Part shown: positions 2,228 to 60,276 of the stretch, piece by piece | How the letters are laid out: each line of letters begins with the position of its first letter | Position numbering within the stretch: position 1 is the stretch's first letter | Sequence record: PZ452610.1 | From: a phage | Direction: 5' to 3' (one strand) | Length of the DNA: 64,000 nt | Program-made: the position numbers and the translations under genes | Notes under the pieces: model-generated | What the model was told of the DNA's origin: nothing | Databases searched by the model: none | What the model saw: the letters and a program-made list of their open reading frames with translations, nothing else

Positions 2228-2407
2228 TTAACCCTTCTTAAGTAAGTCGTAAAAACCACCGTTCACATGTTTAGGAGCAGAAACCCGACGAGTAGACAGA
2301 CGATGACATTCAGGGCAAACATCGTTTTCTCGTTCAGAAATCCTTTTAATTTTTTCATATTCATGACCACAATCTTCAGATTGACATTTATAATCGTATA
2401 ACGGCAT
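2228..2407 (-). CDS. FmdB-family zinc-ribbon protein, 59 aa (below ORF-track cutoff)
   Basis: Hand translation MPLYDYKCQSEDCGHEYEKIKRISERENDVCPECHRLSTRRVSAPKHVNGGFYDLLKKG; CxxC...CPxC ribbon; SD AAGGAA before ATG 2407. Confidence 0.6.
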   Translation of the reverse strand: MPLYDYKCQSEDCGHEYEKIKRISERENDVCPECHRLSTRRVSAPKHVNGGFYDLLKKG

Positions 2408-2409
2408 TA

Positions 2410-2820
2410 TTATTCCTTAAAATGTGCTTTCAACATTTGATACAAAGACCATGCCTGGTCATTATTTTTGATAGTAATCGTCATCACAGGAAATTCAGAC
2501 AATTCATCAAGTTCACCAGAATCTTGCTCTTCGGACGCTTGATATGGATTTCCAACTTCGTCAAAGAACTCTGCTTCATTAGTGGAGAGCCAAATAAAGT
2601 TTTCATCAAGAATATCACCGCCTGTTGCGTATCCAACTGTGCCAGTAGATGTCACAATTTTAGTAGGACGACCAAGATGGTCAACATCTAATACTTTAAA
2701 TGGTTCCATGCCAAGACGTCGTGCATAAATCCCATTATCAGTGTGGTCTTTAATAAACTCTTCTTGGGCACGTTTATCTTTAAATTGGTACCATGAGTTA
2801 ACGCGGAATTTATTAGCCAT
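2410..2820 (-). CDS. Hypothetical acidic protein, about 136 aa
   Basis: Track ORF starts at TTG 2838; ATG at 2820 (MANKF...) has SD GAAGGAAA, preferred start. Confidence 0.55.
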
Positions 2821-3104: not shown

Positions 3105-3629
3105 TCATTTTAGCAAAATAAAATCAACTTGTTCTGCCAATGAACGTCTAAACATTAATTGACAACTTCCGAGTATGAAATCAGGTGCTTCATAGACCGC
3201 GATGTAGTATCCTTTAGCTTTCAAGAGTTCAACATCCACTTGGTCATCAAACCATGCATAAACCGCGTCAACACTTTCAAATCCAAAATAGAACCCTTGA
3301 GCCCAATCTTCACTCAATTCAAATGTGTACTCAATTCTATGGTATCTTAAGATATTTTGTTCAAGGAGTTTGTCTTCATTTACTGTAGGACGATTAGGGA
3401 CATTATAGTTGTCGCCGTGATGGTAGAAGTTACCTGAGAGTATTCCATGCTTATCAAGGAATTCCCATGTTTCTTCAGAGTTGTCGGTGCCTGACCAACC
3501 GTACGGCGAGCGAGGTTCTTTATTCCAAGAGGTTTCCCAAATTCTGACGGCTTTACCGTCTTCGATAGCAATTCCTGGTAATGATTCACGTTGAGTACAA
3601 AAACTACGTTCTACGCGGTAAACTAACAT
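3105..3629 (-). CDS. Hypothetical protein, 174 aa
   Basis: ATG 3629 with SD GAGGAG; early promoter immediately upstream. Confidence 0.6.
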   Translation of the reverse strand: MLVYRVERSFCTQRESLPGIAIEDGKAVRIWETSWNKEPRSPYGWSGTDNSEETWEFLDKHGILSGNFYHHGDNYNVPNRPTVNEDKLLEQNILRYHRIEYTFELSEDWAQGFYFGFESVDAVYAWFDDQVDVELLKAKGYYIAVYEAPDFILGSCQLMFRRSLAEQVDFILLK

Positions 3630-3655
3630 ATTATTCTCCTCTGGTTGATATGGTT

Positions 3656-3684
3656 ATAATATCAAATCCAGAGGAGAAGTAAAC
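3656..3684 (-). promoter_or_regulatory. T4-type early promoter (GTTTAC - 17 nt - TATTAT)
   Basis: Minus strand GTTTACTTCTCCTCTGGATTTGATATTAT; spacer TCCTCTGG is complementary to the downstream SD region CCAGAGGAG. Confidence 0.55.
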
Positions 3685-3688
3685 AACT

Positions 3689-4108
3689 TTATGCGAAAGC
3701 AGCTGGGCTATATTTTTTAATTTGGAATTCAGGAACTACCATGAACTGTCCAGCGAAAACAATGTTATAAAGCTTAACACCATCTTCTACCCAACGGTCG
3801 CTAATAAATCCGGCGATTTGCTTAGTTTTCCACGGTGTTCCATCAGTTGCCGCAGCAATAGTGAATTCATGGTCTTTTTCAACAGAAACTGATCTGCATA
3901 ATCCCCATTTGAACGCTTTTTCTTCCGGTTCAATGAATTGGCTTTTAACGTAACCAATGTTACCATCAGCGTCACGAACTTTAACTTCGTTACGTCCAAA
4001 AACAGGATCACTCACAGAAAGAACTTCAACCAACTTCCCGGCAACTTTAGAGCGAGAAGCAACAGATACATATACGTAATCACCTGTAGAGAGATTTACA
4101 ATATTCAT
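3689..4108 (-). CDS. Hypothetical protein, 139 aa; member A of a 3-gene tandem paralog family
   Basis: Shares C-terminal motif GFISDRWVEDGVKLYNIVFAGQF with the next two ORFs; SD AAGGAA. Confidence 0.6.
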   Translation of the reverse strand: MNIVNLSTGDYVYVSVASRSKVAGKLVEVLSVSDPVFGRNEVKVRDADGNIGYVKSQFIEPEEKAFKWGLCRSVSVEKDHEFTIAAATDGTPWKTKQIAGFISDRWVEDGVKLYNIVFAGQFMVVPEFQIKKYSPAAFA

Positions 4109-9679: not shown

Positions 9680-9708
9680 ATCATAACACGAGAGGAGGGA
9701 ATGTAAAC
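9680..9708 (-). promoter_or_regulatory. T4-type early promoter (GTTTAC - 17 nt - TATGAT) for modB
   Basis: Minus strand GTTTACATTCCCTCCTCTCGTGTTATGAT. Confidence 0.45.
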
Positions 9709-9872
9709 TACTTTTTAAGCTTTCCTACTAAAGGTCCATCAGGACCAGGTTGTTCTAACATGAATAACGATGCTTTAAAAAGCAATGCCAACCCTTTCAC
9801 CATTCGATACCATGTCTCAAAGTCTTTTTCCTTGATTTCTAGTAAGAATTTCTCTTTCAATTTCTCTTTCAT
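9708..9872 (-). CDS. Possible small ORF, 54 aa (not in ORF track)
   Basis: ATG overlaps stop of upstream ORF (ATGA coupling); translation MKEKLKEKFLLEIKEKDFETWYRM... Confidence 0.3.
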   Translation of the reverse strand: MKEKLKEKFLLEIKEKDFETWYRMVKGLALLFKASLFMLEQPGPDGPLVGKLKK

Positions 9873-10057
9873 TTCCAAGGACTCCATGGCGGAGGGTCGT
9901 CATAATAAGAGGCAAGGTCTTTCAGGGCTTCAACAGGTAAACTAAAGCCGTGTCGTTGTATAATACTATCTAGTTCATCGACAAGTTCACTACGATGAAC
10001 TTTAGGAGCCTCAACTTCAGGCTCATCAAACATACTCATCAAGTCCATATTATTCAC
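9869..10057 (-). CDS. Hypothetical acidic protein, 62 aa
   Basis: ORF in operon context. Confidence 0.45.
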   Translation of the reverse strand: MNNMDLMSMFDEPEVEAPKVHRSELVDELDSIIQRHGFSLPVEALKDLASYYDDPPPWSPWK

Positions 10058-10514
10058 CGAGATAAAAACTAGCCGGTTCAGAAAATGTTTCTAGTGCTAC
10101 ACCTTTTGTCTTAAAAAATTTCCAAATAGCTCGTTGCAAATGGATTAAATCTGCTAATGACGTAATAAAGTATTTTTTGGCAAAATACTTATGGTCTCGC
10201 TTTTCAAACAAGTCTAAACGCTTTTCAGGATTCACATAAACGGCATTTTCCGTAGATTCATAACCTAAGTCCTTTATGCCTTCTTCAAGACTAAACGGAG
10301 AATTTTTAGAATGAGTAATAGCTCCAACTCGCTCTACACGAATTTTGTAACCTTTAGGAATCTGCAATTTGCAGAATTCTTCTACGATATATTGCGGATT
10401 ATTTAGACTTTTGTTAATGAGAATAGCTATTTCTAGTGGAGTCTTATCTTCCACTGGTATATGTTTAAATGACTTGGCTTCAAGCAAATACATTTTAAAT
10501 AGCATAGCATCCAT
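10050..10514 (-). CDS. Hypothetical protein, 154 aa (mrh region of T4 map)
   Basis: ORF in operon context; start overlaps upstream stop. Confidence 0.5.
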   Translation of the reverse strand: MDAMLFKMYLLEAKSFKHIPVEDKTPLEIAILINKSLNNPQYIVEEFCKLQIPKGYKIRVERVGAITHSKNSPFSLEEGIKDLGYESTENAVYVNPEKRLDLFEKRDHKYFAKKYFITSLADLIHLQRAIWKFFKTKGVALETFSEPASFYLGE

Positions 10515-10720
10515 TATAATTTCCTCGATGGTTCACCCATATAAAGTTTTACAATACGTTCGCCTTCATCTTCGACGAGCTTTTCTTCATGTTTCTGGAA
10601 TTCTTTAGCCATATTCTCTTCAAGAACATCCAGCCAATCTTCTGGACCGACACCATCGTCCCAGCTTTTAAACCATTTAACTATCTTGTTCATTCGCAGC
10701 TCCCTGAGCTTGAACCACAA
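10514..10720 (-). CDS. Hypothetical protein, 68 aa
   Basis: ORF in operon context. Confidence 0.45.
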   Translation of the reverse strand: MWFKLRELRMNKIVKWFKSWDDGVGPEDWLDVLEENMAKEFQKHEEKLVEDEGERIVKLYMGEPSRKL

Positions 10721-11473: not shown

Positions 11474-11812
11474 TTAACTCCTTTGTTGTTTAATTACAGG
11501 TGTATTTATAATGAATTCCTGTGGAACAGTAAAATATCCGAATTTAGCTAATACAACAACATCACCATTAATGATTACTGGAGAATAATCATCTGAGTTA
11601 TTAAATTTCCAATGAAGCCTGTCATCATATCCATCAGAACCAAATGCTCGAGTAGCCGGTCTCCCGGCTTTTTGCCATGCATAAAAATCAAGTTTCATTT
11701 GCAACCCAATCAACCATATGTAGATGGTCTGATAATTGACTAACATGCTGAAGCTGATTAGACAGGAGCTTACAAATAAGCTCACTGTTATCATTTTTAA
11801 ATAGTTGGTCAA
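11474..11812 (-). CDS. Possible hypothetical ORF (soc.1/soc.2 region); start unclear
   Basis: Open frame only; internal ATGs lack clear SD; overlaps soc late promoter. Confidence 0.3.
   Translation of the reverse strand: MTNYLKMITVSLFVSSCLISFSMLVNYQTIYIWLIGLQMKLDFYAWQKAGRPATRAFGSDGYDDRLHWKFNNSDDYSPVIINGDVVVLAKFGYFTVPQEFIINTPVIKQQRS
11503..11510 (-). promoter_or_regulatory. T4 late promoter TATAAATA for soc
   Basis: Exact TATAAATA on minus strand about 32 nt upstream of soc ATG, followed by SD AAGGAG. Confidence 0.65.
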
Positions 11813-11860
11813 TACGTTTCTTATGAGCTTTCTTAAGCTGACGTTTATTTAAACGAGCCA

Positions 11861-12382
11861 TTAATAACCTCGGTCTTGACGAGCAAAGTTTTCAGCATTC
11901 TTCAGATAATACAGTTTAAAGATTTCTTCAGCAGAAAGACCCAGACCTTGGAACATGTTCAGAACGAAGTGCAGAATATCAATCATTTCGAATTTAATTT
12001 CGAGCTGGTCTTCGGGAGACAGTTCATCAATACGACGATTACGATATTCAGCATGTTGTGCTTTCCATGGCTTCCACACAGAGCTGGCAGCTTTTTCACC
12101 GTTGGACATACCACCAAGTGAAGTCAGCAGTTCACGGAATTCATCATCAATATAATCTTTCTGATTACGCAGCCAATCAACAACATCGCCAGCAGTAGCC
12201 AATTCATCAGGATGTTTGTTATGTTCAGGCTTGTCATTTGCCAGACGAACCTGTAAAGATTTCTGCATATCAAGCATTACCTGCAGTGGGTCTTTATCTT
12301 CGTGAATCAGAGCATTAAAATAAGCTTCTTCTGCTTTATCAACACCAGAAATAAGTTGTGAACATTCGTTAAAGTGTGCCAT
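11861..12382 (-). CDS. 56: dCTP pyrophosphatase gp56 (MazG-like dCTPase/dUTPase)
   Basis: MAHFNECSQL... with C-terminus EIFKLYYLKNAENFARQD matches T4 gp56; ATG 12382 with SD AAAGGAAAAA. Confidence 0.9.
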   Translation of the reverse strand: MAHFNECSQLISGVDKAEEAYFNALIHEDKDPLQVMLDMQKSLQVRLANDKPEHNKHPDELATAGDVVDWLRNQKDYIDDEFRELLTSLGGMSNGEKAASSVWKPWKAQHAEYRNRRIDELSPEDQLEIKFEMIDILHFVLNMFQGLGLSAEEIFKLYYLKNAENFARQDRGY

Positions 12383-12470: not shown

Positions 12471-12668
12471 ATGTTTAAACTTCCATCGTTAATCAACGCT
12501 ATTAAAGGCAATAAAAAGAAAACTGCTATCGCTGCAATAGTTGTAGGTGGCATTATTTCATGGAACTTCGGGATTGCACCATTGTTAGTTGCCCATGGTA
12601 TTATAGTTCCTTCTGTTCCATTGGATACTGTAGTTGATTTGGCCTTTGCTATTATAGGGCTTGTTTAA
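12471..12668 (+). CDS. Small hydrophobic protein, 65 aa; only plus-strand gene candidate
   Basis: ATG preceded by strong SD AAGGAG at 5-nt spacing; predicted TM segment; stop overlaps the stop of convergent gene 61. Confidence 0.45.
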   Translation: MFKLPSLINAIKGNKKKTAIAAIVVGGIISWNFGIAPLLVAHGIIVPSVPLDTVVDLAFAIIGLV

Positions 12669-22457: not shown

Positions 22458-22697
22458 TTATTTGAATTTCTTGACAATGTTGATATAACGTAAAGCTTCA
22501 GCATCGATACTTCCAAGAACACTATGAAGAAATGCATCAGCGTAGTATTCCAATTGAACAGGTTCTTTAATCACTTTAGCCGCTTTAGTTTCAAACAGGC
22601 CCATCAGGGCCTTTTTAAGAATTTGTTCGTTGCTGTTAATTTTCATAGTCAAAATCTCTTCATTAAGTTGGTGGTTAAAAGTTTTTCTAGAAATCAT
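22458..22697 (-). CDS. Hypothetical protein, 79 aa
   Basis: ORF in operon context. Confidence 0.45.
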   Translation of the reverse strand: MISRKTFNHQLNEEILTMKINSNEQILKKALMGLFETKAAKVIKEPVQLEYYADAFLHSVLGSIDAEALRYINIVKKFK

Positions 22698-23869
22698 TCC
22701 GGGTACCTCAAAGCGTCATCAGAGTTAGTTATATCAATAATAGATATAGAGTTTTCTGCTAACCCGTTTTTAGATAATTGACGTTTATAATATCTTTCAC
22801 AATATGTACACGTCGTCCCGCAGATTTCATTAGCACAATCGAAATCTGGATGTCTGAACCACCTTTTTTCTAAAAAGCCATCTAACAAAGAGGTTTCAAT
22901 ATTTACTGTATGTGAAAACTCAGTTTCGTTTTCAAGAGTGAAAATAGTCTCTAAAGGCTTCCACAGTTCTAACAAATTACCTTCAAACTTTTCAGAAGCG
23001 TATGCTTCAAGAACTTTCAAAATGTAGTCTGTGCTACCTGTACGTCCTGAAACTTTGAATTGAGTGATACCAATATCATTATAAAGTTTCAAATCTTGAG
23101 GACGAACAAAACGAGTTCTCAACCAGTTAAATGGGTCTGTATCACGAGCTTTAATACAGTGCTGCATAGGATATCCGTTTAAGGATTTAGCATCATCAGC
23201 TGTAACATCAGTACTATGGAAAATATAGCAAGAGTCACGATAGCTACAATGTGTTGTATACCCTTTACCAGCATTAGAACAGAACTCATTTACAAGAACT
23301 TCAAATATTATATTGTTCTTATTGCAAAACTCTGCTGCACGCTTCAGGAAAGAAACTGAACGGTTCTTATGAATTCCACAGCAGACCTTTTTGATATTAT
23401 ACTGGTCATGCAAGTATTTGATTTGAGTTACAGCATCGACATGTAGAATTGTTGAAACTTCAATCTCAATGTCTTTATTGACTTCACGAACAATTTCCAT
23501 AACAACAGGGTTAGCGATAGTAATACGCCATACGCCTATTGACCAAAGATACTGAACATAATCCTGAATAGCTTTCTTCTTCCACCCAACTAGTTCTCTT
23601 TTTGAACCAGGATTTATCGTGTTGAGTGTATAGTTAAAGCAAATACCTAATTCGTTACAACGTTTAACGTAATCTTCTAACATCTTTTTGTCAACGTCAG
23701 GAAGCCTAAAATCAGGTCTGGCTGCTACAAAAGCCATTTCTCTTGTAGAGCCGTATACTTCGTTTATCAAGCTATTAGGATAAGTTTTATTGAGCTCTAC
23801 GATTTTATCAAGAAGAGCTAAATCAAAATTCGTTCCAATTTTAAAAGTATTCATTTTTTTGCATCTCAC
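22694..23869 (-). CDS. Hypothetical protein, 391 aa, with C-terminal Cys cluster
   Basis: C-terminal CANEICGTTCTYC (C-x4-C-x3-C-x2-C); family not recognised; sits inside the sugar-nucleotide cassette. Confidence 0.6.
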   Translation of the reverse strand: MRCKKMNTFKIGTNFDLALLDKIVELNKTYPNSLINEVYGSTREMAFVAARPDFRLPDVDKKMLEDYVKRCNELGICFNYTLNTINPGSKRELVGWKKKAIQDYVQYLWSIGVWRITIANPVVMEIVREVNKDIEIEVSTILHVDAVTQIKYLHDQYNIKKVCCGIHKNRSVSFLKRAAEFCNKNNIIFEVLVNEFCSNAGKGYTTHCSYRDSCYIFHSTDVTADDAKSLNGYPMQHCIKARDTDPFNWLRTRFVRPQDLKLYNDIGITQFKVSGRTGSTDYILKVLEAYASEKFEGNLLELWKPLETIFTLENETEFSHTVNIETSLLDGFLEKRWFRHPDFDCANEICGTTCTYCERYYKRQLSKNGLAENSISIIDITNSDDALRYPE

Positions 23870-23910
23870 GTTAATTGATGCGATGGTTTTTGCAGGTCTT
23901 ACTTAAATTA

Positions 23911-24312
23911 TTATAGATTCGGTTTATATGATTTAAATGTTTCGAATTCGCCTTTATTCATAAGAGCTTTGAATTCGTCAGGACGCATAGCTTTGTCGTC
24001 GATAATCCAATCATATACTGGTTTATGTGTTAGCAAATTATGGTACTTCAAACCAATGTTTTCCAAGTTCTGAATCAGACTTGGGAGAATGTCAATTGCT
24101 ATACGACCAGGACCTACTGACTTCATACCGCGAGCAGTGTAAAGCGTTATGGTATGCCCTGCATCATACAGGGCATTAATAGCAGTCACCATTTCGACGT
24201 CTGGTTTGAAGTTCACGTAATCACGATTGTTATTCCACTCTGTTATACAATCATCGACATCAAAACAAAGATTAAGCATGTTTTCTACACGGTGCATTAG
24301 ATTCGTTCCCAT
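23911..24312 (-). CDS. HAD-superfamily phosphatase-like protein, 133 aa
   Basis: N-terminal FDVDDCIT (HAD motif I-like), TLYTARG (motif II), KPVYDWIIDD (motifs III/IV). Confidence 0.6.
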   Translation of the reverse strand: MGTNLMHRVENMLNLCFDVDDCITEWNNNRDYVNFKPDVEMVTAINALYDAGHTITLYTARGMKSVGPGRIAIDILPSLIQNLENIGLKYHNLLTHKPVYDWIIDDKAMRPDEFKALMNKGEFETFKSYKPNL

Positions 24313-25982
24313 TGATGAGTGATATCGCCACCGATTGGACGATAAGAAACACCAGTTTCTTTATCAGTTAGTACCCATTTACCAGGATTTTTTGTAATCA
24401 GAGTAGCCGTTACAGGTTCTGCTACGTCATAACTAATAGAGCCGTCCTGAAGTACACGGCCCATGTTACGTAATTGCTTAGTCAGAAGTTCCATACCTTT
24501 ATAATATGCGGCTACCGCTTTAAGTGGATTATTCTTGAAATAACCACCTAATGCAATCCAGATAATTGCTACAGCCAAATGATGATACTCGTTAAACGAA
24601 CTCATCTTTCCATATTTGTAAACTAATGGATTGATGTTAATAGTCACATTACAAGTTGTTTCGTCAATAGTAAACTGTCCCCAGGTCGGATTAGCGTTGA
24701 ATTCATCATAACCTGAAACAGCATAAAGCACTTTAGCTTCATCATACAATTTTGGCCCGTAAATCTTGGTTTCGCCAAAATATCCACGAGGGTCGATAAA
24801 CTTGACTTCGCCGTTATCAGTAATCATAGTATTACTGAAGTTCGGGTCACCGTGAATAACAGAGTACTGTCCCTGAGAACGGGTATGATAACGAATAAGA
24901 TGTTCTAAAGCTTGCTTCAGCATTGGCTTCAGACGTCCAATCTTAGTGTAGTTCACGTGTGTGATTTTACCAAATGAATCAATCAATGGCTGAATGCTTT
25001 CACAACGATCAATAACTTTCGTATAGAACTCTTTAGTGAAATCACGGCGAACAGTTTCAGGACTTACAAAATAAGTGTCTGTGCTGAATTTCAGTGCATC
25101 TAAAATTGCATCAACAATTTGTGGACGAGCAAGACTTGATTTGGATTTAATATATTCAAATGCTGGCTTACCTTTAATACGTTCCATTTCAAAATTATTT
25201 TCATTTACCGAAACTAACTGAGGAACTGAATCTGATTTCACTTTCAAATACCATGAAATCTCATCTTTTTGAAGAGCTCGACCTTGTTCGGTTAACGCGA
25301 ATTTAGTTACAGTTTCTTCGCCAATTTCAACTGCATTAAAACTACGATTAAGTTCACGAACTTCATGAGCTTTTTCAAGTTTAGGCATATCACCTAAATC
25401 AATTAGATTCATAAGCTCTGATTTATTGAATGCACTGCCGTAAAGGAATTCTACGAAATCACGTCCTTTGCAGTATTCATGAATTTCCTCATCAGTAGAA
25501 CCCATGTAGAATTCCCAGTCTTTGAACTGATAAATTCCTACAACATTACCGCCTGTTGAACCTACGTTAGTGATATTTTCACCATCGAAATTATATCGAC
25601 ATTCATCACCCTTAACATAGATTGCGTTAACATTCCAAGACCATGAACCAAAATCAGGAATAATATCACACCAGTTAACAATTACGTTATGGCCATCTAA
25701 ATCTTTGTATAATTTAGCAAGAGCATAAGCAGAACCATACGCTTCATCAACTGTACGAATAGTCACATTGAACCCTTCTTGCTCGCAATAAGCTCGAACA
25801 GTTTCAGCAAATTTTGAATGAACTACTACAATAATTTCATCTGCGCCAAGGTCAGAATAAATTGTATACAAATTGCTCAGAATAGTGTCTTGTTTATAGT
25901 TAACAAGAACTTTTGGAATATGATGCGTTATTGGATACAAACGAGTTGCCAGTCCAGCACCAAGAATAACAGCTTTTTTCAT
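24297..25982 (-). CDS. Bifunctional sugar-1-phosphate nucleotidyltransferase / APH-type sugar kinase
   Basis: 561 aa; N-terminus KAVILGAGLATRLYPITHHIPKVLV (NTP-transferase G-x-G-x-R-L); C-terminus HGDPNFSNTMITDNGEVKFIDPRGYFG (APH/ChoK catalytic loop). Confidence 0.75.
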   Translation of the reverse strand: MKKAVILGAGLATRLYPITHHIPKVLVNYKQDTILSNLYTIYSDLGADEIIVVVHSKFAETVRAYCEQEGFNVTIRTVDEAYGSAYALAKLYKDLDGHNVIVNWCDIIPDFGSWSWNVNAIYVKGDECRYNFDGENITNVGSTGGNVVGIYQFKDWEFYMGSTDEEIHEYCKGRDFVEFLYGSAFNKSELMNLIDLGDMPKLEKAHEVRELNRSFNAVEIGEETVTKFALTEQGRALQKDEISWYLKVKSDSVPQLVSVNENNFEMERIKGKPAFEYIKSKSSLARPQIVDAILDALKFSTDTYFVSPETVRRDFTKEFYTKVIDRCESIQPLIDSFGKITHVNYTKIGRLKPMLKQALEHLIRYHTRSQGQYSVIHGDPNFSNTMITDNGEVKFIDPRGYFGETKIYGPKLYDEAKVLYAVSGYDEFNANPTWGQFTIDETTCNVTININPLVYKYGKMSSFNEYHHLAVAIIWIALGGYFKNNPLKAVAAYYKGMELLTKQLRNMGRVLQDGSISYDVAEPVTATLITKNPGKWVLTDKETGVSYRPIGGDITHQWERI

Positions 25983-26023
25983 GTTGTGGTCCTCATTGGT
26001 AAGTAGGTGTATTGTACACTATT

Positions 26024-26167
26024 CTAGTTAAAGCATTCATACTTTGCTTGTAGTCCAATCATAATCCATCCAATTACAAGTGTTGGAATCATTACTGGAG
26101 CCGTTAAGCTCCAGTAGATAGTCATGACAAGCATCAATAGTAAAAGTCCTATTGTTATTGCTTTCAT
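26024..26167 (-). CDS. Possible small membrane peptide, 47 aa (not in ORF track)
   Basis: ATG overlaps the TGA of the SIS gene (ATGA coupling); MKAITIGLLLLMLVMTIYW... hydrophobic. Confidence 0.3.
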   Translation of the reverse strand: MKAITIGLLLLMLVMTIYWSLTAPVMIPTLVIGWIMIGLQAKYECFN

Positions 26168-26799
26168 TGTTCGCCTCGTAACATGGCACCTAGTGCACCG
26201 CCTGGATGGAACTTAAGAAAGTCATTAGAGGTAAATCCACGTTCAGACGAAAGGTTGATAGCAAACGTATCGATAAGCGCTAACAACAATGTAGTGGACA
26301 TAGTCGGAGCCAGAGAATTCTCATCAACCTCTACCGCGATGCCTGTACAGAAAGAGTAATCAAAAAGGGCTTCATTTTCTTGCGGAATGTCTGGGTTACA
26401 ATGCAACAGAATCTGTTTGACATTTGGACGAATCATTTTAAGATGCTTAGCCACGCCTATCATTTCTTCAGTCTTACCAGAACGACTAATATGAATCAAC
26501 ACATCATTAGGCGCAATGAATCCTGCATCACCGTGAGAATAATGCCCAGTGTTCAAGTACATACTCGGGATACCGAGTGAAGCAAATGTCTCAGAAGCTT
26601 TAGTTGCAATATTAGCATTCTTACCAACACCTGTAATAATTACTCGGCTTTCATAATTACTAAGTCCAGGGCGTCGAAGAGTTTCTAGAATAGCATTATA
26701 ACGAGCAGGGTTTTGACTAATTACTTTGGCCATAGCGGCCAAAGAAGAAGCTTGTTTTATGATTGCGTCAATAGCGATAGTAATAGGAGTAGTTTTCAT
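26164..26799 (-). CDS. Arabinose-5-phosphate isomerase-like SIS-domain protein (KdsD/GutQ type, no CBS domains)
   Basis: 211 aa; VIITGVGKNANIATKASETFASLGIPS...HGD...HISRSGKT and C-terminal HPGGALG parallel the E. coli KdsD SIS domain. Confidence 0.8.
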   Translation of the reverse strand: MKTTPITIAIDAIIKQASSLAAMAKVISQNPARYNAILETLRRPGLSNYESRVIITGVGKNANIATKASETFASLGIPSMYLNTGHYSHGDAGFIAPNDVLIHISRSGKTEEMIGVAKHLKMIRPNVKQILLHCNPDIPQENEALFDYSFCTGIAVEVDENSLAPTMSTTLLLALIDTFAINLSSERGFTSNDFLKFHPGGALGAMLRGEQ

Positions 26800-36230: not shown

Positions 36231-36262
36231 TATAAAGCAAAAAAGGAACTCCGAAGAGTTCC
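36231..36262 (-). terminator. Rho-independent terminator
   Basis: Minus strand GGAACTC-TTCG-GAGTTCC followed by TTTTTTGCTTTAT. Confidence 0.65.
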
Positions 36263-36435
36263 TATCCACATAGTACACCGTACAGAGGCTCATTTGAACT
36301 TTTAAATCGAATTGGCTTGTACGTAATAGTTCCTTCGGCTTTAGCTTTATCATAAGACTCTTTAAAACGTCTCATTCTTTCTGCTTTGCCTTTACGGATT
36401 TTATCGAAATTTTCAGAAGTCGGGATGTTCGTCAT
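36262..36435 (-). CDS. Small basic protein, 57 aa (below ORF-track cutoff)
   Basis: Hand translation MTNIPTSENFDKIRKGKAERMRRFKESYDKAKAEG...; SD GAGAGG; stop abuts terminator. Confidence 0.45.
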   Translation of the reverse strand: MTNIPTSENFDKIRKGKAERMRRFKESYDKAKAEGTITYKPIRFKSSNEPLYGVLCG

Positions 36436-39001: not shown

Positions 39002-39202
39002 TTAACCGAACTTTTTAGCGCCTTTCCAGCCTTCGTACATAACTGCGCAAGTCAATAGCACGGCATGTTGGCATTCTTTGTATTTGTAAATCCAGAACCA
39101 GCGTAAAAAGTCTTCATCCTCAACACCGTTGAGTTTCATATTGGCAAAGAATTCGGCACGTTCTTCACGAAGTTGCCATGACACAATATTTTCAGGATTC
39201 AT
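39002..39202 (-). CDS. Hypothetical protein, about 66 aa
   Basis: ATG 39202 overlaps upstream TGA (ATGA coupling). Confidence 0.45.
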   Translation of the reverse strand: MNPENIVSWQLREERAEFFANMKLNGVEDEDFLRWFWIYKYKECQHAVLLTCAVMYEGWKGAKKFG

Positions 39203-39333
39203 TTTGTGTTCCACGCCCCATTTTCATCGATGAACTTAATCCAGTCATTTACAGACCATTTAGTTGTATCACCCTTTGGATTAACATTTAAAGTATATAA
39301 TCCCTGCTTAAAAAGCATTCGTTTGATATTCAT
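39199..39333 (-). CDS. Hypothetical protein, about 44 aa
   Basis: ATG 39333 with SD GAGGAA; track ORF extends upstream in overlap with neighbour. Confidence 0.4.
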   Translation of the reverse strand: MNIKRMLFKQGLYTLNVNPKGDTTKWSVNDWIKFIDENGAWNTK

Positions 39334-41643: not shown

Positions 41644-43457
41644 TGGTGTTTAACCCTATGCATGATTTCTTTATTTTTACCGAGATTAAATCCGCGTTCG
41701 TTCGGATTTCCCAAATAACCGCATGTTCTTCTTATGGTGTTCATCTTTTTAGGATCAGTTTCTCCGCAAACTGAACAAACAAATCCGTTTTCAGTAGGAG
41801 TCATTTCATGGGTACTTCCACATGTAAAACATTTATCTACTGGCATATTAACACCAAAATAATCTAAATGTTGTGCAGCATAATCCCAGACAGCCTCAAG
41901 TCCCTTTAAATTGTTTTTCATATCTGGAAGTTCAACATAAGAAATGTGACCACCTGTCGCAATGAAATGATATGGCGCTTCACGAGAAATCTTTTCAAAC
42001 GGAGTAATATTTTCTTCTACTGAAACATGGAAACTATTAGTGTACCAGCCTTTATCTGTAACATCTTTTACACTTCCATATTTTTCTGTGTCTAGTTTAC
42101 AGAAACGATAACAAAGGTTTTCAGCAGGTGTAGAATACAAGCTAAAAGCAAACCCAGTTCTTTCAGTCCATTGTTTAAGAAGAGCATTCATTTTAGTTAA
42201 AATTTCTTGTCCAATATCACGTCCGACAAGAATATTCAATTCGTGGATACCAATGTATCCTAAAGACACTGAACTTCTACCGTTTTTAAATAACTCAATT
42301 ATGTCGTCATCAGGTTTAAGACGAACCCCGAATGCACCTTCTTGGTAAAGAATAGGAGCAACAGTCGCTTTAACTCCTTTTAAGGAACTAATTCTACACA
42401 TCAAGGCTTCAAAACACAGATCCATACGTTCATTGAATAATTCAACAAATTTCTGTTCATTGAACTGTGTTCCAATATAAGAATCTAATGCGATACGAGG
42501 AAGATTCAGTGTTACAACACCGAGATTATTACGTCCATCAAGAATTTCATTACCAGTCGAATCTTTCCATACGCTCAAGAAACTACGGCAACCCATTGGA
42601 GAAACTGGAACTGAAGAACCAGTAATAGCTTTATTATTCTTAGCTGAAATAATATCAGGATACATTCTTTTGCTTGCGCACTCTAGAGCAAGCTGCTTAA
42701 TATCATAGTTCGGATCGTCTTTATAAAGATTAACACCTTCTTCAACGAACATAACAAGCTTAGGGAAAATAGGAGTTATTCCATCACGACCAAGACCTTT
42801 AATGCGGTTTTTAAGAATTGCCTTCTGAATCATTCGTTCAGTCCAATCGGCCCCCGTACCAAATGTAATTGTTACAAAAGGTGTTTGTCCGTTTGAACTA
42901 AAGAGAGTATTTACTTCATATTCATAAGCTTGGAACGCGTCATAGACATCTTTTTCTGTTTTGGATTGAGCATAATTCAACGCATCAGCGATTTGCCATT
43001 TTTCCGCATCTTCAACATGTTTAGCGTATGTGCGTTTAACATAAGGAGAAAGAACTTTATCGACATTTGCAAATGTAGTTCCGCCATACTGATGTGAAGC
43101 AACTTGTGCAGTAATTTGTGCCATAATTGCAGTAGCAACACCAATCGATTTAGGCGTTTCAATTTGAGCATTGCCTAATTTAAATCCGTTCTCAAGCATC
43201 CCCTTTAAATCGACTAAACAACAATTAGTAAACGGAAGAGCAGGAGAATAATCAATATCATGCATGTGGATAATTCCACTTTCATGCGCATTCATAATAA
43301 AAGACGGGACCATATTTTTGGCAATGTGCTTAGACACAATACCAGCCATAAGGTCCCGTTGAGTTGGAAAAACACGAGAATCTTTATTAGCATTCTCGTT
43401 TAAAAGGTCTTTATTAGTTTTATGAATTAATCCTTCAATTTCTTTTTCAATTTTCAT
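41640..43457 (-). CDS. nrdD: Anaerobic ribonucleoside-triphosphate reductase NrdD (glycyl radical enzyme), uninterrupted
   Basis: 605 aa; C-terminal zinc ribbon CFTCGS...CSVCG and glycyl radical motif RRTCGYLGNP; no intron-like interruption. Confidence 0.95.
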   Translation of the reverse strand: MKIEKEIEGLIHKTNKDLLNENANKDSRVFPTQRDLMAGIVSKHIAKNMVPSFIMNAHESGIIHMHDIDYSPALPFTNCCLVDLKGMLENGFKLGNAQIETPKSIGVATAIMAQITAQVASHQYGGTTFANVDKVLSPYVKRTYAKHVEDAEKWQIADALNYAQSKTEKDVYDAFQAYEYEVNTLFSSNGQTPFVTITFGTGADWTERMIQKAILKNRIKGLGRDGITPIFPKLVMFVEEGVNLYKDDPNYDIKQLALECASKRMYPDIISAKNNKAITGSSVPVSPMGCRSFLSVWKDSTGNEILDGRNNLGVVTLNLPRIALDSYIGTQFNEQKFVELFNERMDLCFEALMCRISSLKGVKATVAPILYQEGAFGVRLKPDDDIIELFKNGRSSVSLGYIGIHELNILVGRDIGQEILTKMNALLKQWTERTGFAFSLYSTPAENLCYRFCKLDTEKYGSVKDVTDKGWYTNSFHVSVEENITPFEKISREAPYHFIATGGHISYVELPDMKNNLKGLEAVWDYAAQHLDYFGVNMPVDKCFTCGSTHEMTPTENGFVCSVCGETDPKKMNTIRRTCGYLGNPNERGFNLGKNKEIMHRVKHQ

Positions 43458-43964: not shown

Positions 43965-44154
43965 ATTTAGTAAACGTTATAAAAGTCTCGATGGAAACGC
44001 TTATACTGACGAATCATTCTTTTAGTAGGACGAGTTTCTGAAATAATTGAAGTCCTCATATTTGGATTGTTTGGGGCCCAATCATAATAAATTTCCAGGA
44101 TTTTTGCCCATTTTTTCTTTCGCCATAAAATAGTTCAGTTTTCATAATAAGCCC

Positions 44155-44569: not shown

Positions 44570-44740
44570 TCAATATTCTCTATAAAAGTTACGATGAGAA
44601 CGTTTAGCTTTGCGAAGCTGACGTTTAGTAGGACGAACTGTAAATGGTTGTCCAGAGAAAAAATTCGGATCGGTTTTAATAAGCAAATACCAATCATGTT
44701 TGCCATTTTTTAATAAACGGTACAATAATTTAACTTGCAT
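44570..44740 (-). CDS. Small basic protein, about 56 aa
   Basis: Track start is TTG 44767; ATG 44740 with GGGAAGAG upstream; basic tail RQLRKAKRSHRNFYREY. Confidence 0.4.
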   Translation of the reverse strand: MQVKLLYRLLKNGKHDWYLLIKTDPNFFSGQPFTVRPTKRQLRKAKRSHRNFYREY

Positions 44741-53153: not shown

Positions 53154-53696
53154 TTATTTCAAAGTTGGGATAATAGAATCGAGATAAGCTTTAAGAGCAA
53201 CTGCTTCATCTTTGTCTAATGTAACGATATGTTGACGAAGGTCATCAATTTGACGAATAACTACAACATCGCCATCTTCATAAGAAGGATTAACGCCTAG
53301 GACCGTTGTATAGTCAGGGCGGTCCTGATTTGTAATAAAAGCATTACGGCATTTAGCCCATTGAAGTTTGGCCTTTTTGGCTATTTCAGATTCCATTAAT
53401 TCTTTCACCTTAGTGACGAATGTTTTCCAATTATTGATAGAAAGGCATTCATCTTCTGTTTCGATATTAACCCCACTATAAAGACCGTGATAAAAACGAA
53501 CTTGAAGGTCTTCATCGATGTTAATTACAGATGCATGGCCTGGCGGATTGAGTTTCAAAATCTTGTCCAGTTCCATAGGAAGAATAGTAACAGAATCATC
53601 TTCTTGTGTCAGAACGTAAGCATAACCACGTTTTTCGATACATAAATCACCAAACAACTCGGTTGTTTCAATTACAATTTTCATATTATTCACCAA
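53154..53696 (-). CDS. Hypothetical protein, 180 aa
   Basis: ORF. Confidence 0.5.
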   Translation of the reverse strand: MVNNMKIVIETTELFGDLCIEKRGYAYVLTQEDDSVTILPMELDKILKLNPPGHASVINIDEDLQVRFYHGLYSGVNIETEDECLSINNWKTFVTKVKELMESEIAKKAKLQWAKCRNAFITNQDRPDYTTVLGVNPSYEDGDVVVIRQIDDLRQHIVTLDKDEAVALKAYLDSIIPTLK

Positions 53697-53869
53697 TTAA
53701 AGTTTCAACAAAATTCACCAAAGCATTCTGGCACGCATCAACCTGATTTTCATAAAAGTCTCCGTTATCATTTACCGCGTGATAAGCTACATCATTCAAA
53801 TCTGAATCGGCTTCACGTAGGTCACGGATAAGGTCCATCAATTTATTAGCTTGTTCACGGGTCATTTTA
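53690..53869 (-). CDS. Small acidic protein, 59 aa (below ORF-track cutoff)
   Basis: Hand translation MTREQANKLMDLIRDLREADSDL...; ATG overlaps stop of an upstream 36-aa ORF. Confidence 0.35.
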
Positions 53870-53980
53870 CCATACTCGTTTCAATAAGATTCACTATGCC
53901 GTTTACCATGTTATAAGTAAACATCGGATAATTGTATTGTACTACAACATAAGCGATAAGCAAAAGTTTCATTTTGTTCT
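53870..53980 (-). CDS. Possible 36-aa hydrophobic peptide with own early promoter
   Basis: Promoter GTTTAC - 18 nt - TATAGT at about 53985-54015, SD ACGGAGAA, MKLLLIAYVVVQYNYPMF... Confidence 0.3.
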
Positions 53981-54029
53981 CCGTTTGTTTTGGTAGGACT
54001 ACTATAACATAGTCCTACCAAGATGTAAA

Positions 54030-54236: not shown

Positions 54237-54246
54237 AATATCCTCA

Positions 54247-54423
54247 CATAATCTCGTTAACATACATTTGCAATTCAGTGTGGGCGTCGGCCATCTTTTT
54301 CATAGCTCTGTTAATGTCGATGTCTCCATCTTCGCACCCATGAGCATTTTCCCAATCAGATACCGCATTAGCATACTCTTCAATCAAAAACATCAACTTA
54401 GAAATCTTTTCTTTACGTGTCAT
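54247..54423 (-). CDS. Small protein, 58 aa (below ORF-track cutoff)
   Basis: SD AGGAGA before ATG 54423; MTRKEKISKLMFLIEEYANAVSDWENAHG...; own promoter and upstream terminator. Confidence 0.45.
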
Positions 54424-54489
54424 AGCGTTCTCCTATAGTAAGTAAGGACTACTATAACACAACCTGAGGAGAAGTAAACTGATAGATGC

Positions 54490-55670: not shown

Positions 55671-55853
55671 TTATAGTGAATTCACGTAGTCAATGAGTTC
55701 TTGTTCTTTCCTGTCAAATGATTCCAACAATGCTTGATATTCTTCATCTGTTAAAGGAGCATATTCATCGTACGCATTGGTGGCTGCTTGCTCATCCAAT
55801 AGGTCATGGATAAGTTCGAATAGTTTAGCTTTCTCTTCTTTAGTTAATTTCAT
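55671..55853 (-). CDS. Hypothetical acidic protein, 60 aa (tk.1 position)
   Basis: ORF. Confidence 0.45.
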   Translation of the reverse strand: MKLTKEEKAKLFELIHDLLDEQAATNAYDEYAPLTDEEYQALLESFDRKEQELIDYVNSL

Positions 55854-57069: not shown

Positions 57070-57608
57070 TCTTTTATTTCCAGTAGTTTATTTGATTTAA
57101 GGTAATTAGCCTTTTCTAGGACTTCAGAAGCATATTTACTTCCAGCACTTGTCTTCCATCCCGCATTATATGAGGATATGGCTTTTCTTATATCCCCGTT
57201 ATGTATATTTAACCAATAAGAAAATTCGATATAAGCCCATCTGGCTGAATTAGACCGCTTAGATAGCATTTTCTTAATTTGGGCATCAGTCATATTATAA
57301 CCAAGCTGGTTAATTCTTGCCCTCATTGTTGGTAGATAGTTTTGGAACATTCCATACGCATGGTGACCTTTCTTATCTTTAAGATTAATACCGGCAGATG
57401 ATTCTTGCCATAGTATTGCGGCCATTATGTATCCAAGTCCTTTCTTATGCATATTTTCATGCGTTTTAAATTTTCCATCCTTAGAAAACTGTTCCCCAAA
57501 CTGATAAGCATAATTCAAGTTATCGAGTTGGACATTACTAAAAGTATGCTCGGAGCTATGTGCTGATAACGAAAGAGCAAATAGACCAGCGAGTAGTGCT
57601 TTTCTCAT
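57066..57608 (-). CDS. vs.1: Secreted lytic-transglycosylase-like protein (vs.1 position)
   Basis: Signal peptide MRKALLAGLFALSLSA; SLT-like catalytic segment AAILWQESSAG. Confidence 0.6.
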   Translation of the reverse strand: MRKALLAGLFALSLSAHSSEHTFSNVQLDNLNYAYQFGEQFSKDGKFKTHENMHKKGLGYIMAAILWQESSAGINLKDKKGHHAYGMFQNYLPTMRARINQLGYNMTDAQIKKMLSKRSNSARWAYIEFSYWLNIHNGDIRKAISSYNAGWKTSAGSKYASEVLEKANYLKSNKLLEIKE

Positions 57609-57616
57609 GTTTACCT

Positions 57617-58075
57617 CTAGATTTTAATCACTGCTTTAGAAGCTTTTCCTGGTAGTCGTTTACTGTTAATAATAGCCATTCTGCATTGAAGAGTCTTCAT
57701 TTTGAATGCTGGATTTTCGCGACAAACTGTAAGTCCTAACCAAAGATTTCCATCAGTTATTTCTAAACGGCCTGGGCGATATTCGACACCTTCGACAAAA
57801 TCTTCATCAACATCTGGACGGGCTGGCATTGATAAAAATTCTGCAACTTCTTTAACATGATTTTTTACTTTATGAAATAATTCAAAAACGTAATTCTCAT
57901 CTATTTCTCTCTGGATGGCACGATCTAAGAGATGTTGAGAATACTTGATATGAAAGCCTGGTAGTCCAAGAGACTTTGCAGCATCTTTTATACTGGCATT
58001 TATTTTGCGGAACTCCGTTTCAAAGATTCGACGGAGTTTATTGCGGCGGATAAAAACGTCTGAATTGATAGTCAT
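57617..58075 (-). CDS. regB: RegB site-specific endoribonuclease
   Basis: 152 aa; MTINSDVFIRRNKLRRIFETEFRKIN... and C-terminal RLPGKASKAVIKI match T4 RegB. Confidence 0.9.
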   Translation of the reverse strand: MTINSDVFIRRNKLRRIFETEFRKINASIKDAAKSLGLPGFHIKYSQHLLDRAIQREIDENYVFELFHKVKNHVKEVAEFLSMPARPDVDEDFVEGVEYRPGRLEITDGNLWLGLTVCRENPAFKMKTLQCRMAIINSKRLPGKASKAVIKI

Positions 58076-60103: not shown

Positions 60104-60276
60104 TTAGTTTCTCTTTTATGTTGGGCCATTCCGTGGCACATGTTAGGTCCTTCGACTCGCTATGTAAACCCATTACCGCACTTGGGCTCGACATTATTAC
60201 AGGTTGGAAAAGGTACATCACTCAGAGGACTCGACGTTCATGAGGAGAGGTTGCGTTTCCCTTTATTAGGCAAGAA

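Follow-up and report, generated by a model that had tools for sequence, protein, structure and literature searches.

Does a frame of fewer than 60 codons in a densely coded phage genome stand for a gene, and if so, for which one? This question is raised by the stretch of phage DNA analysed here (64,000 nucleotides of record PZ452610.1, referred to as the window), for which an earlier note had proposed a set of plausible small genes with Shine-Dalgarno (SD) sites and/or ATGA-type coupling, among them an FmdB-type zinc ribbon at 2228-2407. Translation retrieved all seven proposed frames, every one of them on the minus strand, and an SD site and/or an ATGA overlap is present for all seven. Judged from sequence comparison, we consider it very probable that the seven frames are real and translated early genes of small size, catalogued before, in a T-even phage of the RB69 type, and that the frame at 2228-2407 is gene 39.2, the product of which would act on GroEL by orthology.

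The stretch derives from a Mosigvirus of the RB69 group of T-even phages. In megablast, its first 8 kb are 100% identical to two E. coli O157 typing phages, 3 and 6, and the entire window corresponds to positions 20994-84993 of NC_041864.1 (typing phage 6) save for three mismatches (4344, 42882 and 58552), none of which falls within the seven small ORFs. Of the 126 CDS annotated in the window, 125 lie on the minus strand, with a coding density of about 95%. The description of the small genes as missed is true of the 60-aa ORF list on which the earlier note was based, but not of the public annotation, as each frame equals an annotated CDS in RefSeq NC_041864.1 (gp030, gp043, gp074, gp087, gp125, gp126 and gp128). 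Six of the seven were even included in the RB69 record of 2003 (RB69p006, ORF020c, ORF054c, a-gt.2, tk.1 and mobD.2a), where RB69p006 is labelled 'similar to T4' 39.2 and ORF054c 'similar to T4 42-imm intercistronic region'. Four of the seven match Pfam families (PF09723, DUF5486 and twice DUF7438) and all seven match PHROG families. Since 14 annotated CDS in the window are shorter than 60 aa, seven more are absent from the list of the earlier note. Conversely, in the 14 intergenic gaps that measure 75 nt or more, no SD site was found in front of any minus-strand ORF reaching 18 aa, and neither a tRNA nor an Rfam family at gathering score was found in the window.

Short ORFs are frequent by chance in this DNA, the first 6 kb alone containing 55 with 30 aa or more, so that the case for coding rests on conservation, and support beyond chance comes from conservation together with the in-frame substitution pattern. 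Conservation of the frames in related phages had been set beforehand as the test; the frames proved to be conserved, and the opposite outcome, frames with neither conservation nor a translation signal, was not obtained. Using tblastn against 50,697 phage records, we found homologues in 956 records for 39.2, 154 for the ORF at 9708-9872, 576 for 42.1, 816 for a-gt.2, 155 for the ORF at 53686-53865, 838 for MobD.2 and 640 for MobD.2a. These homologues are mostly full length and, for five of the seven ORFs, reach other genera at 45-80% amino-acid identity. Codon alignments were built from the loci of RB69, T4, phiE142, LF82-8, SH7, RB14, QL01, EcS1, P479, Kc304 and PS49, one Klebsiella phage and IMG/VR contigs, and pairwise dN/dS values were calculated according to Nei-Gojobori with the window copy as reference. 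The values range from 0 to 0.49 over the seven ORFs and thus stay below one. In every comparison, the annotated frame is free of stop codons and has the highest or tied amino-acid identity, whereas the other five frames carry stops. The sole consistent exception is one antisense frame of 9708-9872; occasional stop-free antisense frames appear in single comparisons (mobD.2 against SH7, mobD.2a against RB69). With relatives in 154 to 956 phage records, the reading of these frames as real genes is well borne out.

Expression data from T4 point in the same direction. A multi-omics study of T4 lists early transcripts for all T4 counterparts (PMC9697503, supplementary files 4 and 6), and its proteome table assigns a protein temporal class to a-gt.2, ModA.4 and Tk.1 and no such class to 39.2, MobD.2 and MobD.2a (PMC9697503). 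We read a temporal class as detection of the protein in T4. Among these mass-spectrometry data, a-gt.2 is the orthologue of a window protein, and ModA.4 and Tk.1 are related to two window ORFs at the level of families only. The small genes are probably transcribed within polycistronic early units, and translation probably starts either from their own SD sites or by ATGA-type reinitiation. On the basis of sequence, the six genes other than 39.2 correspond, as orthologues or paralogues, to T4 42.1, a-gt.2, tk.1/mobD.4, mobD.2 and mobD.2a and putatively to T4 modA.4. With regard to their products, 42.1 and MobD.2 are likely small hydrophobic or membrane peptides, the two DUF7438 proteins are likely acidic and helical, and a-gt.2 is likely a basic protein.

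The gene at 2228-2407 (FDG80_gp030) encodes a 59-aa protein (MPLYDYKCQSEDCGHEYEKIKRISERENDVCPECHRLSTRRVSAPKHVNGGFYDLLKKG) which was correctly recognised as an FmdB-type zinc ribbon: the score is 49.3 bits for PF09723 (curated cut-off 34.4; E 5e-13) and 48.0 bits for TIGR02605 (curated cut-off 31.3; E 9e-13). Gene 39.2 is said to have been isolated for the first time from an RB69 library. Its SD sequence AAGGA (2414-2418, minus strand), read directly from the sequence and conserved in the T-even relatives listed, is located 7 nt ahead of the ATG and inside the 3' end of goF, the stop codon of which occupies 2410-2412; the spacers to both adjoining genes measure 2 nt each. The gene sits between goF and the gene at the 39.1 position, which adjoins topoisomerase gene 39, and the annotation tables of T4 and RB69 give the same order (goF-39.2-39.1-39) together with a shared length class of 57-59 aa. 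Four cysteines form the two knuckles C8-x4-C13 and C31-x2-C34 (Cys8, Cys13, Cys31 and Cys34) and are kept in each full-length T-even copy listed, a motif that suggests binding of zinc. All full-length T-even copies that we retrieved share the C-terminal tail SAPKHVNGGFYDLLK without any change. The gene shows dN/dS values of 0-0.13 and approximately 7, 5 and 29 differences at codon positions 1, 2 and 3 in comparison to Dhakavirus/Tequatrovirus-type relatives. Structural comparison contributed little: a single-sequence AlphaFold2 model reached a mean pLDDT of 49, the homologue search gave only eight close relatives, and a PDB sequence search returned ribosomal bL31 as the sole match at an E value of about 0.3, which is not meaningful.

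The window protein is 100% identical to RB69 Gp39.2 over 59 aa. In comparison to T4 Gp39.2 (NwgI), it is 73% identical in residues 1-44 and 85% identical in the tail, the two pieces being separated by a frameshift. The 39.2 entry in the T4 RefSeq record comprises 45 aa and reads PKHGNNGFYDLLK at the position of the tail; the next frame contains the absent tail PKHGNNGFYDLLKG, which indicates that, in comparison to its relatives, the T4 reference has a frameshift of one base. The published T4 Gp39.2 has 58 aa (PMC5153855). We see no difference of substance between the T4 or RB69 proteins and the window protein.

Folding of the major capsid protein of T-even phages needs GroEL and the phage co-chaperonin Gp31, and an early-expressed protein that tunes GroEL fits this need. 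According to two secondary descriptions of T4 Gp39.2 (PMC5153855, PMC4396842; citing Ang & Georgopoulos 2012), this protein tilts GroEL to an open state that is able to bind GroES or the phage co-chaperonin, so that the phage can grow on groEL hosts which would otherwise not support it. Growth of a T4 mutant deleted for 39.2 is reported to be prevented by specific groEL mutations of the host (PMC5153855, PMC4396842; citing Ang & Georgopoulos 2012, Genetics 190:989). From this literature on the T4 orthologue we infer that the window protein would also act on the GroEL of its host.

Within the FmdB family (PF09723, Zn_ribbon_8; TIGR02605, CxxC_CxxC_SSSS), 39.2 has the M-P-x-Y-x-Y-x-C N-terminus and the two cysteine knuckles in common with the other members, and it shares the SAP...GGFY motif behind the ribbon with distant phage members. 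In the T-even clade, the first knuckle has the spacing C-x4-C, and in these distant phage members it has C-x2-C, so that the T-even clade carries an insertion of two residues. Besides, 39.2 is without a Ser-rich C-terminus. The FmdB/Zn_ribbon_8 family as such is very widespread and usually labelled 'regulatory protein'.

The gene at 36262-36435 (gp087) is a-gt.2, the product of which matches DUF5486 over the full length of the profile (PF17588, 97.3 bits against a cut-off of 27, E 4.5e-28). The proposal of a basic 57-aa protein that ends at a terminator was accurate: the protein has a pI of 9.8 and a net charge of +6, and the terminator scan detected a hairpin resembling an intrinsic terminator, with UUCG as its loop and a run of T, that overlaps the stop codon (36244-36263, minus strand; read from 36263 to 36244, AGGAACTC-TTCG-GAGTTCCT followed by TTTTTT). 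The gene shows dN/dS values of 0-0.36, and the protein is 76% identical to T4 a-gt.2. The block from a-gt.2 to a-gt.5 between genes 55 and 47 is common to the window, RB69 and T4; in the window and in RB69, gene 47 follows a-gt.2 directly, whereas in T4 47.1, a-gt and mobB are found in between. The length is 57 aa in the window in contrast to 63 aa annotated in T4, with a variable N-terminus. As phrog_17354 bears the label 'head maturation protease', a role of a-gt.2 as prohead protease was considered and rejected, because Pfam shows DUF5486 alone in the Klebsiella-type homologue.

The 47-aa peptide gp42.1 (26024-26167; gp074, phrog_3610 at E 7e-27) was described as a membrane peptide coupled to an SIS gene, which agrees with a GRAVY of 1.36 and an ATGA overlap at 26164-26167 with the kpsF-like sugar isomerase gene. 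Its dN/dS is 0.17-0.26. The window peptide is 59% identical to gp42.1 of RB14, and an intact ORF is also present in the 42-imm region of T4. Taking RB14 gp42.1 and RB69ORF054c together, identity amounts to 53-60% across five genera, in which the motif MIPT..W..Q..C.N is invariant; the invariant residues are I17, Y18, P24, M26-I27-P28-T29, W34, Q40, C45 and N47. The partner of 42.1 is the kpsF-like isomerase gene in the window and in Kagamiyamavirus EcS1, and imm, likewise coupled, in Tequatrovirus. In Dhakavirus 42.1 follows imm, and in Gaprivervirus it follows a small unnamed CDS which is probably imm.

For the pair proposed at 53690-53980, the 59-aa acidic protein and the 36-aa peptide both exist, but the coordinates were approximate, the actual ones being 53686-53865 and 53862-53972. 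The 36-aa peptide is MobD.2 (gp126), preceded by GGAG before 53972 and by a TG-extended promoter-like site (TTTACA-17-TATAGT, 54001-54029, minus strand), which is a consensus match from a promoter scan only. Both the window peptide (E 1e-20) and T4 MobD.2 (E 4e-21) match phrog_3515; the T4 peptide has 34 aa, is 65% identical and is found in the same cluster below rI. MobD.2 also lies downstream of the rI cluster throughout Tequatrovirus, Mosigvirus, Winklervirus, Karamvirus and Klebsiella phages; it shows an invariant core QY(N/H)xP(M/L)FTYN and dN/dS values of 0.08-0.29, and its records cover at least five genera. As a side observation, MobD.2 and gp42.1 are both conserved across at least five T4-like genera, the former beside the lysis-inhibition gene rI and the latter beside the superinfection-immunity gene imm.

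The ATG of the 59-aa acidic protein at 53686-53865 (gp125; 'tk.1' in RB69, Tk.1/MobD.4-like) overlaps the TGA of mobD.2 (ATGA, 53862-53865). The protein has a pI of 4.1, shows dN/dS values of 0.08-0.26 and matches DUF7438 over its full length (PF24219, 57.2 bits, E 2e-15). The second DUF7438 protein, MobD.2a (gp128), corresponds to the frame given as 54247-54423 in the earlier note. The ORF and an upstream promoter-like site are indeed there (TTTACT-16-TATAGT, TG-extended, 54451-54478, minus strand, again a consensus match only from the promoter scan), but the protein has 59 residues instead of 58 and the noted coordinates omit the stop codon, the gene extending over 54244-54423. It is preceded by AGGAG before 54423, its DUF7438 match is likewise full length (61.0 bits, E 1.4e-16; the cut-off is 25 bits for both), and its dN/dS is 0-0.07 within Mosigvirus. 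In the T4 reference, mobD.2a is truncated by a frameshift. BLASTP between the two acidic proteins found no significant similarity, and their probable paralogy is visible solely in the common Pfam profile DUF7438, of which the window holds a third copy at 55671-55853. T4 gp59, the helicase loader, has about 217 residues. We rejected this identity for the protein at 53686-53865, because Pfam at E<=1 gives DUF7438 alone and the name stems from the label of phrog_4859.

The remaining frame at 9708-9872 (gp043, RB69ORF020c) encodes 54 aa, as described in the earlier note, and is ATGA-coupled to modA.2 (9869-10033; overlap 9869-9872). It matches phrog_5790 at E 1e-22. T4 ModA.4 has the same length, the same modB-mrh neighbourhood and the C-terminal PDGPLVGK.K in common with the window protein; the tblastn match between the two has an E value of 0.005 over 49 aa with 37% identity. 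T4 ModA.4 matches phrog_5790 at E 2.5e-8, but its best PHROG is 2681 instead of 5790. We regard the window protein as a distant, putative relative of ModA.4, a link that holds at the level of profiles only.

This frame is the least secure of the seven, since one antisense frame is equally stop-free and its dN/dS (0.05-0.49) is the highest in the set, which leads to the alternative that some frames, 9708-9872 in the first place, are either open by chance or spacers that the adjoining genes hold open, and yield no functional protein. The antisense frame in question is a shadow ORF of 61 aa on the plus strand (9760-9945), and the dN/dS values of 0.43-0.49 come from the two most diverged copies. 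Besides, no Pfam family is matched, the 154 records with relatives are restricted to Mosigvirus and Carettavirus and are all at least 90% identical over the part scored by tblastn, and in the copy of phage ATK48, which is unannotated, the stop codon has moved by four codons. However, start, ATGA coupling and length are unchanged in the other four of the five diverged copies, the C-terminal half is conserved including the stretch shared with ModA.4 and is backed by the PHROG match of the latter, and T4 ModA.4 itself has a protein temporal class (PMC9697503). For the other six frames, 45-80% amino-acid identity together with saturated synonymous sites excludes this alternative, and overall we regard this alternative as quite unlikely. 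Even less probable, and in our view extremely so, is that a reason at the RNA or DNA level, such as coupling spacers or promoter and terminator context, and not the encoded peptides, accounts for the conservation of the hydrophobic micro-ORFs at 26024-26167 and 53862-53972. Such an explanation would suit their very short length (47 and 36 aa), their lack of annotation in about 40% of the sampled matches and the promoter-like site just upstream of 53972. Yet nucleotide identity drops to 60-74% while the annotated frame is still stop-free with the highest amino-acid identity, the other frames bear stops in nearly every comparison, dN/dS is as low as 0.08-0.29 for the two, and the peptide motifs are invariant across genera. 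Moreover, 42.1 retains its peptide although its upstream partner varies between imm and kpsF.

A further alternative concerns the product of 2228-2407, which RefSeq names 'FmdB-like transcriptional regulator' and which could accordingly bind nucleic acid instead of GroEL. The matches to PF09723 and TIGR02605 and the classification of phrog_1076 under 'transcription regulation' agree with this name, as does the position of 39.2 among early genes that remodel host transcription (goF, motB, srd, modA/B). However, the name is a family label which is not derived from an experiment on any member examined, nothing that we found speaks for a regulatory function, and the protein consists of a four-cysteine ribbon with a short tail, in which the Pfam scan recognised no DNA-binding domain. 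Genetics and biochemistry of the T4 orthologue, as described in PMC5153855 and PMC4396842, indicate GroEL as the target. Whereas the role of regulator is unproven for the FmdB family, a chaperonin phenotype is documented for the T-even 39.2 clade. A regulator is therefore very unlikely in our opinion, and we prefer gene 39.2 as a GroEL-acting orthologue of NwgI.

For 39.2, our comparisons demonstrate that the frame is a gene and establish its family and orthology, and the set as a whole turns out to be ordinary: all seven genes have entries in RefSeq and PHROGs and four of them in Pfam, a function has been published for the principal one, and there is nothing new among them. While the discovery value is small, the results are of practical use for curation. 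The documented role of Gp39.2 as a GroEL modulator is hidden by its RefSeq name, and 'helicase loader' is unsupported as a name for the 59-aa DUF7438 protein at 53686-53865. The T4 reference record has no annotation for one counterpart, 42.1, and contains two others, 39.2 and mobD.2a, in truncated form owing to frameshifts. Furthermore, many annotations of T4-like phages omit the 36-aa MobD.2 and the 47-aa gp42.1 despite clear purifying selection.

Beyond annotation, the sole FmdB/Zn_ribbon_8 member that has been studied genetically and biochemically acts on GroEL, which opens up the speculative and rather unlikely idea that the FmdB family, or at least its many phage members with MPxYxYxC...SAP...GGFY, might be chaperonin modulators instead of transcription factors. 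With the same reservation, and separately from this, MobD.2 and gp42.1 could be functional membrane micropeptides linked to rI and imm.

Some of the small genes appear shortened in the T4 reference record. In the T4 RefSeq entry, 39.2 is 45 aa long vs. 58 aa in relatives (3596-3840 of T4 locus L003), and mobD.2a is 38 aa vs. 57 aa (41996-42165 of T4 locus L084). The C-termini absent from both proteins are encoded in another frame, which indicates one-base frameshifts, either in the reference sequence or in the strain. A break of this kind also lies in the window itself, where the counterpart of the 59-aa gene RB69ORF087c (43967-44145) is interrupted by a one-base deletion (GGCGC to GG-GC). The two minus-strand CDS annotated there, with 30 aa (43967-44059) and 29 aa (44056-44145), each correspond to one half of this gene; rather than two separate genes, they represent a single pseudogene with a frameshift or the result of a sequencing error. 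Other small genes are left out of the records altogether: MobD.2 is unannotated in RB69, where the 36-aa homologue is present at 57511-57674 of NC_004928 (2512-2675 of locus L101), and likewise in ~40% of the sampled T4-like records (scored as "none" under a tblastn match).

The RefSeq name "helicase loader" for the 59-aa protein encoded at 53686-53865 could be traced to the label of phrog_4859; Pfam returns DUF7438 alone, and the name looks wrong. The window holds three DUF7438 paralogues (53686-53865, 54244-54423 and 55671-55853), among which BLASTP found no mutual similarity. For a-gt.2, T4-like phages of the Klebsiella/Enterobacter type carry positional homologues upstream of gene 47 (loci L094-L099, ~1417-1605) that differ at the N-terminus (…SRNGTVYSAEALEKAIDY…) and lack the final 15 residues, because these proteins stop after …TITYKKI. 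The name "head maturation protease" (label of phrog_17354) was rejected for these homologues, as Pfam shows DUF5486 only.

The earlier note had listed small genes below a 60-aa ORF cutoff; further annotated CDS of this size, absent from that list, are found at 9869-10033, 10514-10693, 11688-11861, 39199-39333 and 44570-44740, and such genes include modA.2 (phrog_1647), DUF5484 (gp55.4-like) and DUF7279. The 54-aa ORF at 9708-9872 has a second in-frame ATG upstream at 9887 (9873-9887, minus strand) without a Shine-Dalgarno site, and a low-complexity antisense shadow ORF of 61 aa (9760-9945, plus strand) overlaps both this ORF and modA.2. According to the annotation, the sole plus-strand CDS of the 64-kb window is RB69ORF029w (12471-12668), which is flanked by gene 56 and gene 61 and is convergent with the primase gene. 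In the longest intergenic gap (173 nt, 60104-60276), no ORF on the minus strand is preceded by a Shine-Dalgarno site and there is no match to Rfam or a tRNA, and its predicted RNA fold is weaker than that of shuffled controls (z +1.9). By eye, the G+C content of this gap is above that of its surroundings.

The hydrophobic peptide gp42.1 (26024-26167) is kept while its neighbouring partner gene varies, as seen by comparing window 22458-26799 with loci L108-L111. T4 carries an intact homologous 49-aa ORF on the minus strand at 26227-26376 of NC_000866.4 (10227-10376 of L084), for which this RefSeq record holds no CDS annotation, and many other Tequatrovirus records leave the gene unannotated as well. 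In Tequatrovirus (T4, RB14), gp42.1 is coupled to imm by an ATGA overlap. In Dhakavirus QL01 it is also unannotated and comes after imm, and in Gaprivervirus P479 it is preceded by a small unnamed CDS that is probably imm. In Mosigvirus and Kagamiyamavirus, the preceding gene encodes a kpsF-like arabinose-5-phosphate isomerase, with ATGA coupling in Mosigvirus. Beside kpsF, gp42.1 lies within a sugar-nucleotide block (kpsF, glmU-like, phosphoheptose isomerase, peptidase) flanked by genes 43 and 42, which is probably the arabinosyl-hydroxymethylcytosine cluster of RB69.
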